A stretch of DNA of 64,000 nt. Origin: a virus. The notes below the pieces were generated by a model. The model did no database searches. It was not told where the DNA came from and saw only the letters and a program-made list of their open reading frames with translations. Positions 1,605-64,000 of this stretch are shown here, one piece after another (the first letter of the stretch is position 1; every line of letters begins with the position of its first letter). A program made the translations under genes and the position numbers. The stretch lies in IMG/VR virus record IMGVR_UViG_3300045988_173593, positions 446 through 64,445 of that record; one strand, written 5' to 3'.

Positions 1605-1831
1605 TTTGTTTCCCCTTTTTTGTATGAGTTGAAATTATGCCGGTTCGGCGGTAACAGTTTTTGCTGAAAACCGCCGGAACCGGCGAAAAGTGTTACATCA
1701 GTTTTCACCGCCCCATCCTTGTCGGTTTGCTGGTTCGCCCGGGGACTGTGCCGGGCTGGATGGCGTATATTCGTATTGTCAAAAAGCACCTTTTAAGCGG
1801 AAAGGCTAAGCATCCTTTCTTTATTGTGATT

Positions 1832-1850: not shown

Positions 1851-2049
1851 TTTTGATAAAAAAATCCCTGTATTCTTTAGGTAGAGTAAGATATTTTTCA
1901 TGAATGATTTCTTCAAGACAAAGTTTTTTTGTCTGTTTCTGATACCGACGAATTGCCTCAAGTTCATTCTTTGCTGAAATTGTCACGGTAACAGAGCTAT
2001 CTACATTCATTGTTTTCTTTCGCTTCTTCATTTTATCCTCACTCCTCAC
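1840..2049 (-). CDS. small basic protein divergent from the repressor (Cro-position gene)
   Basis: 69 aa ORF transcribed divergently from the CI-like repressor, flanked by the operator-like repeats. Confidence 0.4.
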   Translation of the reverse strand: MRSEDKMKKRKKTMNVDSSVTVTISAKNELEAIRRYQKQTKKLCLEEIIHEKYLTLPKEYRDFFIKNCD

Positions 2050-2161: not shown

Positions 2162-3178
2162 TTGATTATGCCATATATTACACCGGAAATAAAAAAGGCC
2201 CTGCTGAACTTAATAGAAGATGAAGGTTCAGCGCTTGAACTATCCAGAAAGACGGGAATTTCTCATTCCACATTCAGCAAGTATATTTCAGGGGGAATCT
2301 CGCGAATAAATCAGGCAAATTGGAACCTGATAGCCCCCTTGCTATTACCATATTTACCGGAAATAGAACGCGACAAAGTAAGAAGTCAATTAACAGTTCG
2401 ACAGCAAATCAATCCGGAAAGACATACCCCCCCGGCCACTCGCAACACAATCCGCAACACTCCGGAACTCCGCGAGTGTATTAAAGATGCGATGCTGGAA
2501 CAGGGAATCCGTGGCGCGTCTGAGTTGTGTAAACAGATTGGATATGATACTCCCGGGACTTTGGAGCGGCTTCTCTCCGGCAAGATCAACTGGTTTCCAG
2601 ACATGCTGTCCGCTGTTCTGGATAATCTGAAGATCAACCATGATGATGCGCCGATGTCGCCGGCGGAACGTGGTTTGTTGCAGCCGGAGGGAATTTATTA
2701 CAATGACGGAACACCGAAAACCCGTGCAGTTCTTGTGCATTATCAGCCCGTGATATCATGGGCGAATGCAGCAAGTTATATTGATTGTTTGATTAGCAAC
2801 GATGGAGCAGTAATGAAAAAATGGAGTCCGGATGAGGTAGATGAAACGGTTCCGGTGCCTCTGGATATACGCGGAGTTTGTTCAATTTTCCGGATTTCCG
2901 GTCAGTCGATGGAACCGGCGATTAATGACGGAGATATTATTTATTGCGAACAGATGATGGATTTGCATACCATTCCTGACAAGCGTGTTGTGGTTGTAAA
3001 GTTTTCGGACTGCAACAAGTTTGAGGATTGTATTGTCTGCAAACGTTTCCGCCGAATCGGTGATAAGATTCTCTTGACCAGTGACAATCCAGCCGGTCGT
3101 GAGTTTGAACTTGAACCGCAGGATATTACATGGATCGGAATCCTCCGCAAATTGACCAAGAACGGTGATACTATATGA
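2162..3178 (+). CDS. CI/LexA-like repressor: N-terminal HTH regions plus C-terminal S24 peptidase domain
   Basis: C-terminal ISGQSMEPAINDGDIIY...KRVVVV matches the S24 Ser-Lys dyad family (GDSMEP-type motif, Lys in KR). N-terminal repeats resemble HTH (SRKTGISHSTFSKYISG). Confidence 0.8.
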   Translation: MIMPYITPEIKKALLNLIEDEGSALELSRKTGISHSTFSKYISGGISRINQANWNLIAPLLLPYLPEIERDKVRSQLTVRQQINPERHTPPATRNTIRNTPELRECIKDAMLEQGIRGASELCKQIGYDTPGTLERLLSGKINWFPDMLSAVLDNLKINHDDAPMSPAERGLLQPEGIYYNDGTPKTRAVLVHYQPVISWANAASYIDCLISNDGAVMKKWSPDEVDETVPVPLDIRGVCSIFRISGQSMEPAINDGDIIYCEQMMDLHTIPDKRVVVVKFSDCNKFEDCIVCKRFRRIGDKILLTSDNPAGREFELEPQDITWIGILRKLTKNGDTI

Positions 3179-3275: not shown

Positions 3276-3551
3276 ATGGAAGATGAAATTAAATTTCTGA
3301 AAGAACGTATTGCAAGACTGGAAGAACGTATCCAGTATGCAGATGAAAAAATAAGATCCAATAAGGTATCTGTTTATTTCATTTTTTTAATCTTGATAGT
3401 GTTCTTTTTTCTCGTGATGGAATTATACTATCGGGACGGAGAAAAAGCCGAAGTCCTTAAGGTGCTTGATTCAAAAGAGACAACGGAACAACGTTATATG
3501 CTGATGGATGATAAAAGGGAGCAGATAAAAAGTGGCACTCAGAATCATTAA
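3276..3551 (+). CDS. small coiled-coil plus single-TM protein
   Basis: N-terminal heptad-like LKERIARLEERIQ, then hydrophobic VYFIFLILIVFFFLVM. Confidence 0.4.
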   Translation: MEDEIKFLKERIARLEERIQYADEKIRSNKVSVYFIFLILIVFFFLVMELYYRDGEKAEVLKVLDSKETTEQRYMLMDDKREQIKSGTQNH

Positions 3552-4635
3552 AAACAGATACTATATGTATTTCCGGGACGAGCACGGAAAGCTCCGGACA
3601 ATTGCCACTCATGCTTCACTTAATGAAAAAGAAGAGGCTCTGGCGTTTGAAAAAGAATACATGACACAACTTCGTGCCAAAAAGCGACGCCTCCGGATTT
3701 TAAAGGACTTCCCCGAATATGTCGCCATCCAGCCGGAAGCCAAACCGGATTTTGTAGCGGAAGCCCAGCAGCAGAGACGCGGAAGTATGAAATTATCTGA
3801 AATGTGGGAAACCGCTTGTAAATACAGGCAACTTTCCGACACTCATAAAAAGGCGTTGGAACGCTTCATAAAATCAACAAAATTGAAGTATGTATCTGAT
3901 GTAACTCCCCAAATTGCACTTGCCTACCTTACAAATACCTATGGAGCAGGGAATGGAAAAACATTCAATAATAATAAAACATACTTGAATACTATTTTCA
4001 AACTTTGTGTTGTGGAGTCTGGTATTTCTGGTTCTCCTTTTGATTCAGTTTTGAATATGCGCTTGAAAAATGTTGAAGTCCACAGGAAAATAACAGTTGA
4101 AGAGTTCAACCGTCTGTTTCATGCCGCTGCTGAACCATGGAAAACAGCCCTTTTAATGTCATGGCATACAGGAATGAGGGTAAGTGATTGCTTTACCTTG
4201 AAATGGGACGAAATTCAAGGTGATGCGATTATAAAAATTCCTAATAAGACATTGCGCTTCAATCGTTCTGTTTATATCCCAATACATAAAGAGTTGCAAG
4301 ATCATTTGAATACATTACCGAAGCCAAAAGACAAAAAACAAGCTGTTTTATCGCCGTTTCTTACATCAAGATTCAAACGGGTTTCCGGTGCTAGAATGCG
4401 CTATATCCAGAATCTTTTCAAAACATGTAAGGTTTTAGATACAAAAGATGGAAAAGCCAGCTTTCACAGTCTTCGTGCAACGTTTATTACACGTTGCGAA
4501 GAAGCGGGAATTCCCCGTTCGGCAATTCGTGGTATGGTAGGTCATGTATCCGATGTTACAACAGATAATTATAGTCAGGACAAGGTAACTCCACGCCTGA
4601 TATTAAACTTGCCATCTGTATGTAAAAATGTATGA
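3532..4635 (+). CDS. int: tyrosine site-specific integrase
   Basis: C-terminal catalytic region HSLRATFITRCEEAGIP...GHVSDVTTDNYSQ (R..H..R..Y pattern of the phage integrase family). Located next to the repressor and att. Confidence 0.88.
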   Translation: MALRIIKNRYYMYFRDEHGKLRTIATHASLNEKEEALAFEKEYMTQLRAKKRRLRILKDFPEYVAIQPEAKPDFVAEAQQQRRGSMKLSEMWETACKYRQLSDTHKKALERFIKSTKLKYVSDVTPQIALAYLTNTYGAGNGKTFNNNKTYLNTIFKLCVVESGISGSPFDSVLNMRLKNVEVHRKITVEEFNRLFHAAAEPWKTALLMSWHTGMRVSDCFTLKWDEIQGDAIIKIPNKTLRFNRSVYIPIHKELQDHLNTLPKPKDKKQAVLSPFLTSRFKRVSGARMRYIQNLFKTCKVLDTKDGKASFHSLRATFITRCEEAGIPRSAIRGMVGHVSDVTTDNYSQDKVTPRLILNLPSVCKNV

Positions 4636-4953: not shown

Positions 4954-5739
4954 TCACTTGAAGCGTCCCATGGAATCACGGGAACGACCGCGCCGCCCGT
5001 ATTCCTCAACTTCAACAATCGGAAGCATACGGTCTCTGCGTCTGCTTCGGTCATTGTAGCCGAGTTCTCTGTTACTTCTGTAGGAATGCCCGCCAAGGAA
5101 CATCCTGGCATAACCGGATATCGCTTCTTCCTTGGCTTGTTCCTCAAGTTCCTCTGGCTGGTTCTCTGAATATCCCGTCATCGCCATACAAAGTTCATTA
5201 AACTCTTTCATGGCTTCATAAGGCTCACATTCAGCAATTTTCTTGATCAGTGAAGCGGCTTCTTTGATGATCAGGCATTTGATTTCCTCATCGTCAAGTT
5301 CATGTCCGACAGCCTCGCCGATACGCTCTTTGGCTTCGTGCATTCTGTCTTCAGAAGCGTATCTGGAACGCCGTCTGGAACGATAGGAATACTCACGACC
5401 GGAATCACGGTCGTAATCATAATCCGGATTATACTCCCGATTTGCCGGGTAGCCTCCAAGTCCACGTTCGTTATATTCCAGCCGTCGCGCATACCCGCGA
5501 CTGGAACTGTTATCCATACCCTGTGACCGTGAATCAGAATAGCGTCCGCCGGAATAACGGGTAGCCTCTCCGTCATTTTGGACACCATCAGCCATTTTCT
5601 GGACAAGGTAATTCAACATCAACCATGACATTTTATCGGGGTCGCTACTTTTCAGCTCCTCAATAAACGTCTCCTTATTGTATTTTTCGGGATACATTTC
5701 GTGATGCTCCCCCGATTTCATTTCGTTTTGTTTATCCAT
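4954..5739 (-). CDS. highly charged, disordered RS/RD/Y-rich protein
   Basis: 261 aa. SRRRSRYASEDR, YDYDRDSGREYSYRSRRRS; no recognisable fold. Confidence 0.4.
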   Translation of the reverse strand: MDKQNEMKSGEHHEMYPEKYNKETFIEELKSSDPDKMSWLMLNYLVQKMADGVQNDGEATRYSGGRYSDSRSQGMDNSSSRGYARRLEYNERGLGGYPANREYNPDYDYDRDSGREYSYRSRRRSRYASEDRMHEAKERIGEAVGHELDDEEIKCLIIKEAASLIKKIAECEPYEAMKEFNELCMAMTGYSENQPEELEEQAKEEAISGYARMFLGGHSYRSNRELGYNDRSRRRDRMLPIVEVEEYGRRGRSRDSMGRFK

Positions 5740-8166: not shown

Positions 8167-8718
8167 ATGAACGATATTTTTATCTGTAAACTGGACTTTG
8201 ATACATATGCCCGCGAACTTGCAATTCCGGTTGCAATTAGTTGCAGGTTCGGAAAATGCCATGACTTCGGCAATCCTCAAAGAGATTGCAAGGCGATCTT
8301 TGATACAGGGGCAACAGCCTCAATGATCTCCTCCGATATTGCAAATGAATTAGGGCTGATACCCTATGATACAGCAACTGTTTCTGGAGTCCACGGAACA
8401 GAGTCATCCAATATTTACATCATTGACATGATCTTCCGTAACGGGTTCAAAATACCGAATATCAGTGTTTCGGAGGCGGGAGGCTCAGCCGGCTTCGATC
8501 TTCTCATCGGAATGGATATTATCTCTAAAGGGACAATGCTTCTTTCCGGATCCCATGGCAGAACATTTTTTTATTTTGCTTATCCGTCTCAAATCAAACA
8601 GCCTGAACCTTTGCTTTCATTGCCTTCAGAGCATTTTCCAGAGCTTGAATCATCTTGCAATCGGGCTTGCAGCGTGTGCAATCTCCATGACATGAAAAAT
8701 TCAGAACCAGCTTTTTAG
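8167..8718 (+). CDS. retropepsin-like (clan AA) aspartic protease domain protein
   Basis: IFDTGATASMISSDIANELGL contains the D-T/S-G-A active-site signature, followed by LLIGMDII. Confidence 0.5.
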   Translation: MNDIFICKLDFDTYARELAIPVAISCRFGKCHDFGNPQRDCKAIFDTGATASMISSDIANELGLIPYDTATVSGVHGTESSNIYIIDMIFRNGFKIPNISVSEAGGSAGFDLLIGMDIISKGTMLLSGSHGRTFFYFAYPSQIKQPEPLLSLPSEHFPELESSCNRACSVCNLHDMKNSEPAF

Positions 8719-61531: not shown

Positions 61532-61830
61532 ACGATCGGACATTTTGTTCTTCATGCTGTTAACGTCCTTTTGTATTTGAAACTTTACGTTGATTCGATT
61601 ACAAGACGGATTGCAAGGGCTGATGATGCCGGAGCAATCCATCTGTGAGTTTTTTTGCGGGATTATTCCGTTACATCTTCAGCAGATTCATGCAGAGCGC
61701 GATAAGCGCAAGAATGAACGCTGTAATAGCGATGTGCTTCACGCTGATTCCGAGCGCGTTGTTTGCGCTGTATCTCAGCTGGCAGTATTCGCATTCGTGC
61801 TTCGGATTTTTGCACTGTTTCGGATTCATT

Positions 61831-62118
61831 TTACCGCCCTCCGAGCTGATAATCCAGTATCAGGATGCCTTTGATCTCCTGCTTGAGCTTGCCCTCTATC
61901 GGCAGGGTGTCGATGTAGCGGTAGATTGCCTCCCGGTCGGCGATGGCTTCCGCGGCGAGCGTGATAGCCCCGAACGGATTGCGTTTGATTCTCTGTTGCA
62001 CCGTTGCCGGGAAACCATACCAGATCGGACGTGTCGGGAATTGTTCCTGGTCGTGGCGTTGCGCCAGTGAGATTGCTTCTTCATTCAGTGGAAGCCGGTT
62101 TGTGTGTCTGCAATTCAT
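61831..62118 (-). CDS. hypothetical protein; its RBS and first ~28 codons are paralogous to two downstream repeat units
   Basis: RBS AAGGAGG; MNCRHTNRLPL vs MICRHTSRIPI in the repeats. Confidence 0.45.
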   Translation of the reverse strand: MNCRHTNRLPLNEEAISLAQRHDQEQFPTRPIWYGFPATVQQRIKRNPFGAITLAAEAIADREAIYRYIDTLPIEGKLKQEIKGILILDYQLGGR

Positions 62119-62159
62119 GCTCTCGCCTCCTTGTGATTAGCGAACATTTTTAATGTGTT

Positions 62160-63110
62160 TCTTTTCTGCCGGTTCAGAGCAAAAAAGAAGGCTTGCGGGG
62201 TTGAACCACGAGTCACAAGTCTCGCCTGTCCGAAGACAGCCCCGCAAGCCAAAATAAAACGCTTGCATGAAAAAATCGGGAGTGTGCCGTTTGACGGTAC
62301 GACTGCCGCTTGTGAATCGAGTGGTTCAGACCCAATGCCTTTACAATAGCCTGAGCTTTCACCGAAGTCAAGCGGCTTTCTGAAAAAAGTTGCGATTTTT
62401 TTCGTGTCCGCGCTCTGCGGCGCGGCGGCGTCCCGGATCGGTATCCGGCTCGTGTGTCGGCAAATCATGGTTACCTCCTTCTGCAAAGGTTATTGATTGC
62501 TTTTTTGAGCCGTTTTCACGCGGGCACAAAAAAGGACTTGAAGAGGTTGAAAACACGGCAGAAGACGTGCGCCGATCCTTACGGGTACAGCCCTCTCCAA
62601 GTCCAATAATAGACCTGAGGTATAAATGTTGGGATTTGTTGCCTTGACGGAAACAACGCCCGCTTCTGCTTTCAGAGTTTTCAAGCTCCTTGCCTTTACA
62701 ATAATCGGCAGGGCTTGCGATTTCAAGCGGGTTTTCGGAAAAGTTGCGATTTTTTTCGTGTCCGCGCTCTGCGGCGCGGCGGCGTCCCGGATCGGTATCC
62801 GGCTCGTGTGTCGGCAAATCATTGCTTGCACCTCTATTGCTAAGGATTTTCGTTATCCTCTTTCGCGCCGTTCCAAGGGCACAAAAAAGGGCTTGAGGGT
62901 TGGAACACGTGACTAACGACACGCCAGCCTTACGGCTGCCCTCAAGCCCAAAATCAAAACACAATGATTCGGTCTTGTAAAAATTACGGGAATCGTGCGC
63001 CGAGTTGACGGAACGACTGCCGCGTTAGTAAAGGGGTTCCAATCCCAATACTGGGAATATAACTCTAAAACCCCGTAATATCAAACGCAAACTTATATTT
63101 TTTTTGAAAA
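62160..63110. repeat. three tandem units of about 350 bp, each with a long hairpin (stems 62190-62250, 62534-62604, 62889-62949); units 1-2 share an identical ~85-bp block
   Basis: Seen in sequence: GGCTTGCGGGG/CCCCGCAAGCC; GGACTTGAAGAGG/CCTCTCCAAGTCC; GGGCTTGAGGG/CCCTCAAGCCC. Confidence 0.8.
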
Positions 63111-63165
63111 ATTTGACTTGTTATAAAATAATTATATATTGATATAGAAAAAGGGGAAACAAAAT

Positions 63166-63750
63166 ATGCAAATAAAATGTAGCAAGTGTGGTCAATTATA
63201 TAACGTTGACTTTTCCTTGGTTGGAAGAAAAGTTGAATGTGTTTGCGGTTTCAAGTGGTTTTTGCGTGAGCCTATGCCGCAAATAATGCCAGCTCGATCT
63301 CTTAACGAAGAACTTGAAGCAATATCTATGGAAGATATAGCGCGGTTCCCGGAAAAAACTGCTCAAAGAATATCAAATGCTATTTCAGCGCAATACATGA
63401 ATTACATTAAAAAGACAAATATTATACAAGAAGAGTCTTTTAATGACGCTTATGAAAGTTTGAAAAATAATTGTGCATACGGTAATCCGGTTCCTGGCGT
63501 CTTTAAAGAGTTTTTCAAGTTATGCCGTAAAAAGAATACTGAAGATAAAAAGGCAAAAAACTACCAGTCGGTTATAGACCGTATCAATTTTATGCTTGAA
63601 TTAGACAAAAAACAAATACGAATATTATATTTGACTTACTCACGAAATAACAGGCAATTCACTCTTTCTGTTGCCAGAGAGCATTATTCAAAAATAACGG
63701 TTACAGATAGAAAAAACCTTGAACTGTGTAAAGCAAAATTAAGCAAATAA
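63166..63750 (+). CDS. zinc-ribbon N-terminal domain protein
   Basis: CSKCGQLYNV...ECVCGFKWF; RBS AAAGGGGAAA. Confidence 0.5.
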   Translation: MQIKCSKCGQLYNVDFSLVGRKVECVCGFKWFLREPMPQIMPARSLNEELEAISMEDIARFPEKTAQRISNAISAQYMNYIKKTNIIQEESFNDAYESLKNNCAYGNPVPGVFKEFFKLCRKKNTEDKKAKNYQSVIDRINFMLELDKKQIRILYLTYSRNNRQFTLSVAREHYSKITVTDRKNLELCKAKLSK

Positions 63751-64000
63751 CGTTGTTTTGAAAATGTCAAGCGGCTTTCTGAAATATTTATTTTTTTTTT
63801 GATTTTGCATTTTTCCATTTGTCTGTTTCAAGCTTGAATTTCCAGTAAAGGGATATTACCTTATACCCGCAATACATGCCGGACATGAACAAAAATATGG
63901 AGATGAAATCATGGATGCATTCCTGGATGTCCTGCGGGGGCTTGTTTCCGATAAACTGTTTATTTTCATTGCCGGTTTTATTTTCGGTGTTCTTGCCTGC

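Follow-up and report, generated by a model that had tools for sequence, protein, structure and literature searches.

A candidate array of three heterospecific c4/CI-type antisense RNA modules ahead of the early operon of an uncultivated gut phage

The window analysed here is a 64,000-nucleotide stretch of the IMG/VR virus record IMGVR_UViG_3300045988_173593 (positions 446 to 64,445 of the record) and is the genome of a temperate phage, an uncultivated phage of the gut. Near one end of the window, within positions 62116–63084, three related units follow each other with a spacing of 354–355 base pairs (bp), as determined by a direct-repeat search (families D1, D2, D3, and D7), in agreement with the triplicated module of about 350 bp described in an earlier note on this DNA. 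The first gene behind the array (61831..62118, minus strand) encodes a 95-residue-long helical protein (MNCRHTNRLPL), which has no match in Pfam, PHROG, NCBIfam, or PDB and whose AlphaFold model has a predicted local distance difference test score (pLDDT) of 61. Genes for RecT, an exonuclease, DnaB, and a helicase/methylase are located downstream of the array. The other end of the window contains a CI-like repressor with helix-turn-helix (HTH) and S24 domains (2162–3178) and an integrase (3532–4635). Comparison of the sequences and predicted folds with known systems indicates that the region is probably an array of three heterospecific antisense RNA immunity modules of the c4/CI type, which are encoded on the minus strand and head the early recombination and replication operon.

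The mean column identity of the three units is 69%, and their alignment contains insertions and deletions. This divergence explains why Tandem Repeats Finder reported no array for the 62116–63084 region. A covariance model built from the units (R1) matches the 64-kb window at exactly three places, with scores of 57–105 bits, namely 104.6 bits for unit 3, 56.6 bits for unit 2, and 80.3 bits for unit 1. All early genes flanking the array are on the minus strand, and a run of U residues follows each long stem on the minus strand only. Therefore, the units are read on the minus strand in the order 3, 2, 1, and all positions given below for the features of the units refer to this strand.

The core of each unit is composed of helix P1 of 11–13 bp, helix P2 of 5 bp with a GNRA or UUCG tetraloop, and helix P3 of 5 bp with an 8-nucleotide loop. 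An unpaired strand of 7–8 nucleotides (J), followed by the 3′ arm of helix P1 and UUUUUU, ends each core. The G–U pair closing P3 is invariant; read from the plus strand it would be an A–C mismatch. Folded singly, each of the 24 distinct units of the window and the relatives gives the three-way junction of P1, P2, and P3 with J. The core of unit 3 with its U-run (62883..62949) is supported by its fold and by its scores with both R1 and the Rfam C4 model. Its helix P1 is formed by 62949..62939 with 62899..62889, P2 by 62938..62925, and P3, which carries the recognition loop UCGUUAGU, by 62924..62907; J is GUUCCAA (62906..62900), and the U-run occupies 62888..62883. The core and U-run of unit 2 (62530..62592) have a 13-bp helix P1 (62536–62548 with 62580–62592), an extended P2, the P3 loop UCUUCUGC, and UUUUCAA as J. 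Those of unit 1 (62180..62250) have an 11-bp helix P1 (62190–62200 with 62240–62250), CUGUC-UUCG-GACAG as P2, the P3 loop ACUUGUGA, and GGUUCAA as J. Because the U-run directly follows helix P1, this helix is predicted to double as the stem of an intrinsic terminator.

The three long stems, which were recovered as inverted repeats I9 and I21 and in the folds, lie exactly where the earlier note had placed covarying hairpins. The small inner hairpin that it described as covarying is P2 and does covary. The second inner hairpin, P3, had been missed and was read as a conserved start of the loop, TTGAA(A/C)CACG, which is in reality the variable strand J together with one arm of P3.

The 95-residue protein has a small family of homologs, all of them from metagenomes, and a unit is located directly upstream of its gene in all 23 loci that were fetched with the protein as the query. 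Pattern scans provided five additional unit-bearing loci, four from a metagenome scan and one from a genome scan. Arrays contain one, two, three, or four units, and no array has two units that share J or the P3 loop. About 11 types of P3 loop and about 10 types of J occur among the units, and the two assort independently of each other. In one relative (L026, 981–1381), the last c4-like unit precedes a different first gene, which encodes an 89-residue protein (MTKNQQAGTSG...); therefore, the module is not tied to the 95-residue protein. The pattern matches L025 and L030 were rejected as relatives and are due to chance, since neither the hidden Markov model nor the covariance model matches them.

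Stem pairs were counted on a model-fitted alignment of 23 distinct rows, which leans towards structure; MAFFT misregistered one scaffold type. In the model-fitted alignment, 97.6% of the stem cells are paired compared with 77.5% in shuffles, and none of 500 shuffles reaches the observed value. Changes on both sides are present in 16 of the 26 stem pairs. The lean of the alignment is offset by the single-sequence folds and by controls in which the partners were slid by 1–3 columns, whereupon pairing falls to 35–50%. The selection on RNA structure that the earlier note had deduced from the window is thus borne out, and in the homologs from related phages, where it had proposed to look for covariation, both the stems and the target sites co-vary. 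When ten nearly identical cores are compared, the P3 loop and J vary at 11 of their 15 positions, as opposed to 3 of 46 positions elsewhere. Such loop-restricted variation carries the sequence signature of diversifying selection on specificity, as between phages P1 and P7.

The two variable segments of the core have complementary sites on both sides of it. The sites are named a1, b1, a2, and b2 according to phage P1, in which a′ corresponds to strand J and b′ to the P3 loop. Two hairpin loops are complementary to strand J: one belongs to a small hairpin at the 5′ end of the predicted RNA (a1), the other to a hairpin immediately past the U-run (a2). The P3 loop is complementary to a site after the 5′ hairpin (b1) and to a site overlapping the Shine–Dalgarno sequence (SD) of the next open reading frame (ORF) (b2). 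The earlier note came close with a tandem family of non-coding RNAs or a regulatory array of leader peptides and structured RNAs, and it missed that the relevant strand is the minus strand and that each unit has four target sites.

In unit 1, J (GGUUCA) matches UGAACC in a1 and CUGAACC in a2, and the P3 loop (CUUGUGA) matches UCACAAG in b1 and in the combined b2 and SD, UCACAAG-GAGG. The upstream sites of this unit (62309..62333, inverted repeat I18) are the a1-like GGGUCUGAACCAC at 62333..62321 and the b1-like UCACAAG at 62315..62309. Its downstream region (62126..62179) contains the a2-like loop CUGAACC at 62177..62171 and the b2-like UCACAAG at 62136..62130, which overlaps the SD GGAGG at 62130..62126. 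In unit 2, J (UUUUCAA) matches a1 UUGAAAAC and a2 UGAAAAC, and the P3 loop (CUUCUGC) matches b1 GCAGAAG and the combined b2 and SD GCAGAAG-GAGG. The upstream sites (62663..62688, inverted repeat I20) are the a1-like GAGCUUGAAAAC at 62688..62677 and the b1-like GCAGAAG at 62669..62663; in the downstream region (62475..62529), the a2-like UGAAAAC lies in a hairpin just past the U-run, and the b2-like GCAGAAG at 62485..62479 overlaps the SD GGAGG. In unit 3, J (GUUCCAA) matches UUGGAAC in both a1 and a2, and the P3 loop (GUUAGU) matches b1 ACUAAC. The upstream sites (63024..63046) comprise the a1-like site, which is the loop of a small 5′ hairpin (GGGAUUGGAACCCC, 63046..63033), and the b1-like ACUAAC at 63029..63024. 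The downstream region (62829..62882) contains the a2-like UUGGAAC in a hairpin at 62882..62865, followed by a spacer hairpin. The b2-like GCAAUAG of unit 3 (62840..62834) abuts the SD AGAGGUG and does not match the P3 loop. Between b1 and the core, each unit folds into another hairpin with the invariant loop CCGUCAA, at 62986..63023 in unit 3 and approximately at 62632–62665 and 62285–62310 in units 2 and 1. Many relatives have a further copy of the CCGUCAA motif within the initial codons of the downstream ORF (CCCCGUCAACGGGG).

Duplex energies computed over the 24 distinct units separate cognate from non-cognate pairs at all four sites. The mean values are −7.3 versus −3.1 kcal/mol for J with the upstream hairpin loop (a1), −6.9 versus −3.5 kcal/mol for the P3 loop with the upstream site (b1), −7.8 versus −3.5 kcal/mol for J with the hairpin loop after the terminator (a2), and −8.6 versus −3.7 kcal/mol for the P3 loop with the SD-proximal site (b2). 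The three-by-three matrices of the window are mostly diagonal-dominant, those of strand J least so.

Each of the three units has a predicted sigma-70-like promoter at an identical position, as judged from matches to the consensus. In unit 3, the promoter-like site is TTGATA, 17 nucleotides, and TATATT (63056..63084), with 10 of 12 consensus matches and an equivalent position in all relatives; transcription is predicted to start near 63050. The corresponding sites are TTGAAA, 17 nucleotides, and TATTGT in unit 2 (62698..62726) and TTGACT, 17 nucleotides, and TATTGT in unit 1 (62343..62371). The short element GTCAAGCGGCTTTCTGAAA, which is present in exact copies at 62368–62384 and 63767–63783 and in a diverged copy at 62720–62738, had been noticed before as a recurring sequence; it forms the −35 region and the upstream bases of the promoter of each unit, a role that had gone unrecognized. 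The predicted primary RNA of a unit is about 160 nucleotides long, with a 3′ end formed by the branched hairpin and the U-run. In all units, U residues precede the G that opens helix P1, which is compatible with 5′ maturation by RNase P.

Antisense immunity of the c4/CI type is textbook knowledge for phages P1, P7, and P4, and it has been described as single modules in proteobacterial phages. In a permissive Rfam scan, unit 3 aligns helix for helix to the C4 antisense RNA (RF01695) with 33.1 bits and an E value of 7e-4. Conversely, the best match of R1 in 3 kb of the immI region of phage P1 falls exactly on c4 (15.2 bits, E value of 0.013). The order of elements in the annotated phage P1 record is promoters, a1 UUGACAG, b1 GUUAGUG, c4, a2 UUGACAG, b2 GUUAGUG, and icd. 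There, a′ is the J strand CUGUCAA, b′ is the P3 loop CACUAAC, b2 directly precedes the SD of icd, and icd overlaps ant1. The units share with the c4 RNAs of phages P1 and P7 the three-way junction with the P2 tetraloop hairpin, recognition by J (a′) and the P3 loop (b′), the order of a1 and b1, the RNA, and a2 and b2 (with the exception of b2 of unit 3 in the window), and the location of b2, which lies at the SD of a small first ORF overlapping the following gene. The specificity that underlies the heteroimmunity of phages P1 and P7 is set by a few loop nucleotides (PMC5320573; PMC12197685).

Several features distinguish the units from c4 of phage P1. Phages of the P1 type carry one module, whereas one to four units with different specificities are arranged in tandem here. 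Unlike in phage P1, helix P1 with the U-run is terminator-like, each unit has its own predicted promoter, and a1 and a2 are presented in hairpin loops. The genes behind the array encode the 95-residue protein and recombination and replication proteins instead of icd-ant. The host of phage P1 is a proteobacterium, and that of the phage described here apparently is not, as suggested by the binning of a single contig discussed below. Group 1 C4-like small RNAs of Acinetobacter baumannii resemble the units in that they have many paralogs per genome with variation focused in the recognition loop; by contrast, they are dispersed rather than arranged head to tail, and they pass the Rfam C4 model. No report of tandem c4 arrays was found in the searchable literature, which did not extend to the supplements of motif papers.

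A close parallel for control of a replication operon is the CI RNA of the satellite phage P4 (seqA – cI/seqB – seqC). It is a small RNA from the leader of the operon that it controls and is complementary to one region upstream and one region downstream of itself, as are the units; its target is a replication operon, and RecT, exonuclease, DnaB, and helicase genes lie downstream of the array here. Termination is the step that is controlled in phage P4 (PMC4825925). It is factor-dependent there and linked to the translation of nested ORFs, whereas the core of the unit is itself a predicted terminator with a competing pairing of leader and core, and regulation of termination would be a feature here too. 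CI of phage P4 is a single module, unlike the array.

By analogy with phages P1, P7, and P4, and with the IsrK RNA discussed below, we infer a scheme of transcription, processing, repression in trans, and a termination switch. Most transcripts would stop at the terminator and yield a small RNA, possibly trimmed by RNase P at the 5′ side of helix P1, as in phage P1. The exposed strand J (a′) and P3 loop (b′) would recognize the targets. In read-through transcripts, the pairing of J with a2 and of the P3 loop with b2 would block translation of the next ORF at its SD. J and the P3 loop would also be able to pair with a1 and b1 in the 5′ leader of the RNA itself. In a lysogen producing the three RNAs, both the resident operon and that of any incoming relative whose units are all covered would be silenced. 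About 3.5 kb upstream of their units, two relatives (L018 and L019) carry genes for an HTH repressor and, divergent from it, for a small protein of 67 residues; the latter gene runs in the direction of the units. Therefore, the array would constitute a second layer of immunity, as immI does in phage P1.

Several results weigh against assigning the units to c4-type repressors. The score of unit 3 with C4 (RF01695, clan CL00128) is below the gathering threshold of 45 bits, and units 1 and 2 have no Rfam match at E ≤ 10. At gathering thresholds, neither Rfam nor ARAGORN provided a match in the window. Among the relatives, the only C4 match is a copy with the sequence of unit 3 (33.1 bits); a different unit matches c4-2 with 22.4 bits versus its threshold of 41 bits, and the remaining units have no Rfam match at E ≤ 1. 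The c4-a1b1 model (RF03163) has no match at E ≤ 10 in 61800–64000, where equivalent sites are present. In the phage P1 controls, c4 scored 68.8 bits and c4-a1b1 51 bits, with one match each. In view of the sub-threshold scores and the missing c4-a1b1 match, common descent with c4 of phage P1 is plausible but not proven, and convergence is possible. Site b2 of unit 3 mismatches its own P3 loop and fits the P3 loops of units in L003 and L018; therefore, the lock of unit 3 would be only half closed. The sequence ACUAAC-GAGG, which fits the P3 loop of unit 3, is found in L002 and L006, and because of these cross-matches, the unit 3 junction looks recombinant. Site a2 is 30–40 nucleotides away from the SD, and only b2 touches the SD, by 1–3 nucleotides. 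IsrK, which belongs to the same Rfam clan as C4, is an activator rather than a repressor. Finally, dinucleotide shuffles match the length of the ORFs that run through the units, which are described below, in 0.15–7% of trials per junction (0.0015–0.07); joint support for the open frames is good, not overwhelming, because the junctions are partly related by descent.

The first alternative is that the units are purely cis-acting attenuators, in which translation of an upstream leader ORF selects between terminator and antiterminator and no RNA acts in trans. In each of the three units, the RNA folded to just before the 3′ arm of helix P1 pairs its leader sites with J and the P3 region, and in units 1 and 2 this pairing of leader and core is the minimum-energy fold of the full primary transcript. 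Because it competes with the P1 fold, the leader could act as an antiterminator against helix P1 and the U-run. This predicted competition speaks for an attenuator, as do the leader ORFs, which cross the predicted terminator of the next unit. However, the first unit of every array lacks an upstream ORF and yet has the complete set of sites. Furthermore, a2 and b2 lie beyond the terminator, outside any choice between terminator and antiterminator; each unit has its own predicted promoter; and the layout is equal to that of phage P1, for which trans action has been established. Attenuation in cis as the only function is therefore unlikely. Under trans-acting antisense immunity, the same competition would mean that a free small RNA bound to the nascent leader favors termination, as in phage P4.

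The second alternative, slightly less probable still, is that the units are activators similar to IsrK, in which the short RNA opens an inhibitory structure on the read-through transcript and thus switches on the leader ORF and the genes coupled to it. IsrK of the Salmonella prophage Gifsy-1 has its own promoter and a Rho-independent terminator, and its target is its own read-through transcript, on which it acts via a coupled upstream ORF (PMC4825925). Translation of the effector gene is coupled to that of this short ORF, orf45. Candidate counterparts in the sequence of the units are the promoter-like sites, the stem with the U-run, and the coupled ORFs; the shared Rfam clan also speaks for such a function. 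In addition, a small CCUU/GAGG hairpin predicted by RNAalifold would sequester the SD and hold b2 in its loop. However, the SD-sequestering stem is just 4 bp long, and a duplex at b2 would itself cover part of the SD, as it does in phage P1 with repression as the outcome. IsrK activates translation by remodeling a long-range helix, is present in a single copy, and has no described layout of paired a and b sites. Diversifying orthogonal specificities fit immunity better than self-activation.

The ORFs that connect the units start with an identical block of 84 nucleotides, or 28 codons from the ATG (62385–62468 and 62739–62822), upstream of which the identity drops off in the 5′ untranslated region. 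The block had been recognized before with a less exact extent of about 85 bp (62385–62470 and 62745–62830). It provides the first codons of the ORFs that start after units 3 and 2, and its kinship, together with the SD, to the start of the downstream 95-residue gene holds up: in the relatives, its position is occupied by the first 16–22 codons of the 95-residue gene itself. Therefore, the arrays arose by duplication of a unit together with the start of the gene. Leader ORF 1 (MICRHTSRIPIRD..., 110 codons, 62490..62822) crosses all of unit 2, and its stop is 22 nucleotides before the next ATG. Leader ORF 2 (117 codons, 62115..62468) spans unit 1 entirely and ends in an overlap with the start codon of the 95-residue gene (ATGA). 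As the earlier note had it, repeat-derived sequence follows the block and the frames diverge there, yet they have no stop throughout the next unit. This holds for all arrays: the ORF begun after one unit is open through the promoter, core, and U-run of the following unit. A stop-free frame is present in all nine non-first units and is the same frame as that used by the upstream ORF, whereas every frame contains a stop in eight of the nine units that are the first or the only one of their array. Overlaps of the ATGA type between stop and start occur in the window (unit 2 to unit 1), in L003, twice in L006, and in L008; the stop is 4 nucleotides before the next ATG in L010 and 31 nucleotides before it in L018 and L019. 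The frame used on homologous DNA differs between arrays, with two frames observed, for example, CCG CTT GAA and C CGC TTG AAA. Therefore, openness of the frame rather than the peptide seems to be maintained.

That the 110–117-codon ORFs are genuine protein genes and the repeats a duplicated protein family is very improbable: the frames are open, have strong SDs, and are called as genes with ATGA overlaps in relatives, but they change frame on homologous DNA between arrays and cross promoters, terminator stems, and U-runs, while the stems change by compensatory substitutions and the variation is concentrated in two RNA loops.

Other candidates were rejected as well. A type III toxin–antitoxin system of the ToxI kind, with repeats of about 36 nucleotides and a ToxN-type gene, does not agree with the period of about 355 bp or with a 95-residue protein that has no database match, and no toxin-like ORF for a type I or III system is present. 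A retron RNA lacks the reverse transcriptase, and searches for tRNA-like and Y RNAs gave no matches. The suggestion in the earlier note of an origin or packaging repeat, whether as origin iterons or a pac site, is not supported, since the features are strand-specific and RNA-like, with G–U pairs, U-runs, and promoters.

Within the reading of the region as an array of antisense immunity modules, the ORF begun after one unit is open across the next, and therefore a ribosome entering at any unlocked unit could read through and open the locks that follow. This array logic of read-through by chained leader ORFs is less certain than the function of the single modules. It is conceivable, though doubtful, that the arrays represent an evolvable multivalent RNA immunity in which orthogonal units of lock and key, each with a specificity set by two short loops, are gained, lost, and recombined among related phages and joined by the ORFs into an OR gate. 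If so, an incoming phage would escape unless the lysogen holds the key for each of its units, and a lysogen would exclude a wider range of phages by accumulating keys. Such an arms race, in a phage whose gut host is not a proteobacterium, would have programmable pairs of RNAs as its weapons.

Antisense immunity of the c4/CI kind is already known. Four features are new here. The sequences elude the Rfam models, and up to four modules of different specificity form an array. The core is predicted to double as a terminator in a module with its own putative promoter (a promoter and a terminator of its own are also known from IsrK). Finally, the leader ORFs remain open across the module that follows. 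The c4/CI design would thus extend beyond the reach of the Rfam models to uncultivated gut phages. The roughly ten variants of each recognition loop on near-identical scaffolds, with matching targets, are candidate orthogonal pairs of RNA repressors and targets, and the relatives show directly how the specificity of immunity diversifies. Frames that are open through genes of non-coding RNAs suggest that ribosome read-through may serve to wire several riboregulators in series.

Immediately behind the start codon, the 84-nucleotide block has two GC-rich and stable hairpins, CCGGAU-ACCG-AUCCGG and CCGCGC-CGCAGA-GCGCGG, which could modulate translation of the leader ORFs. In L019 (about 8375–8476, opposite strand) and likewise in L018, a small basic ORF (MAKTQDGKKKVYVHEHKKTDGTKVKPHYRSTPN) with a strong SD is located in an additional segment of about 290 nucleotides between two units, across which the leader ORF is still open.

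A search of the region with blastn against 50,697 phage records gave no match, and scans of IMG/VR by protein and by DNA pattern found no relatives. The only true match to the unit pattern in 185,579 species genomes is L024, a 2.4-kb contig binned in a metagenome-assembled genome of an uncultured member of Lentisphaeria. The binning of this one short contig hints that the host may be a Lentisphaeria bacterium, outside Proteobacteria, the group from which C4 RNAs have been described.

A gene for a 194-residue zinc-ribbon protein (63166–63750, plus strand) is bracketed by the promoter of the first unit and by an orphan copy of the unit promoter motif, TTCAGAAAGCCGCTTGACA (63767..63785, minus strand). 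The orphan motif lies beyond the gene, has a weak −10 region, and has no c4 core behind it. The arrangement of the zinc-ribbon gene and two promoter motifs is matched in L002 (1381–1994) and L006 (2810–3423), and thus occurs in three phages. The gene looks like a cassette inserted into the promoter region of the first unit, and firing of the orphan promoter would run antisense into it.

At the other end of the window, the repeat TTGTTCTTAATCACA (1836–1851 and 2078–2093) flanks a cro-like gene (1860–2033, minus strand), with one copy past the stop of the gene and one in the gap to the CI-like repressor; the copies are likely CI operators. A CI operator at the unit promoters was considered and rejected, since this repeat differs from the unit promoter motif. 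Just downstream of the cro-like gene, a conserved non-coding stretch (1625–1790, minus strand) has no Rfam match at E ≤ 1 and folds better than shuffles (z = −2.69). It has a counterpart in L019 at about 4990–5130 and may be another structured RNA of the early region.

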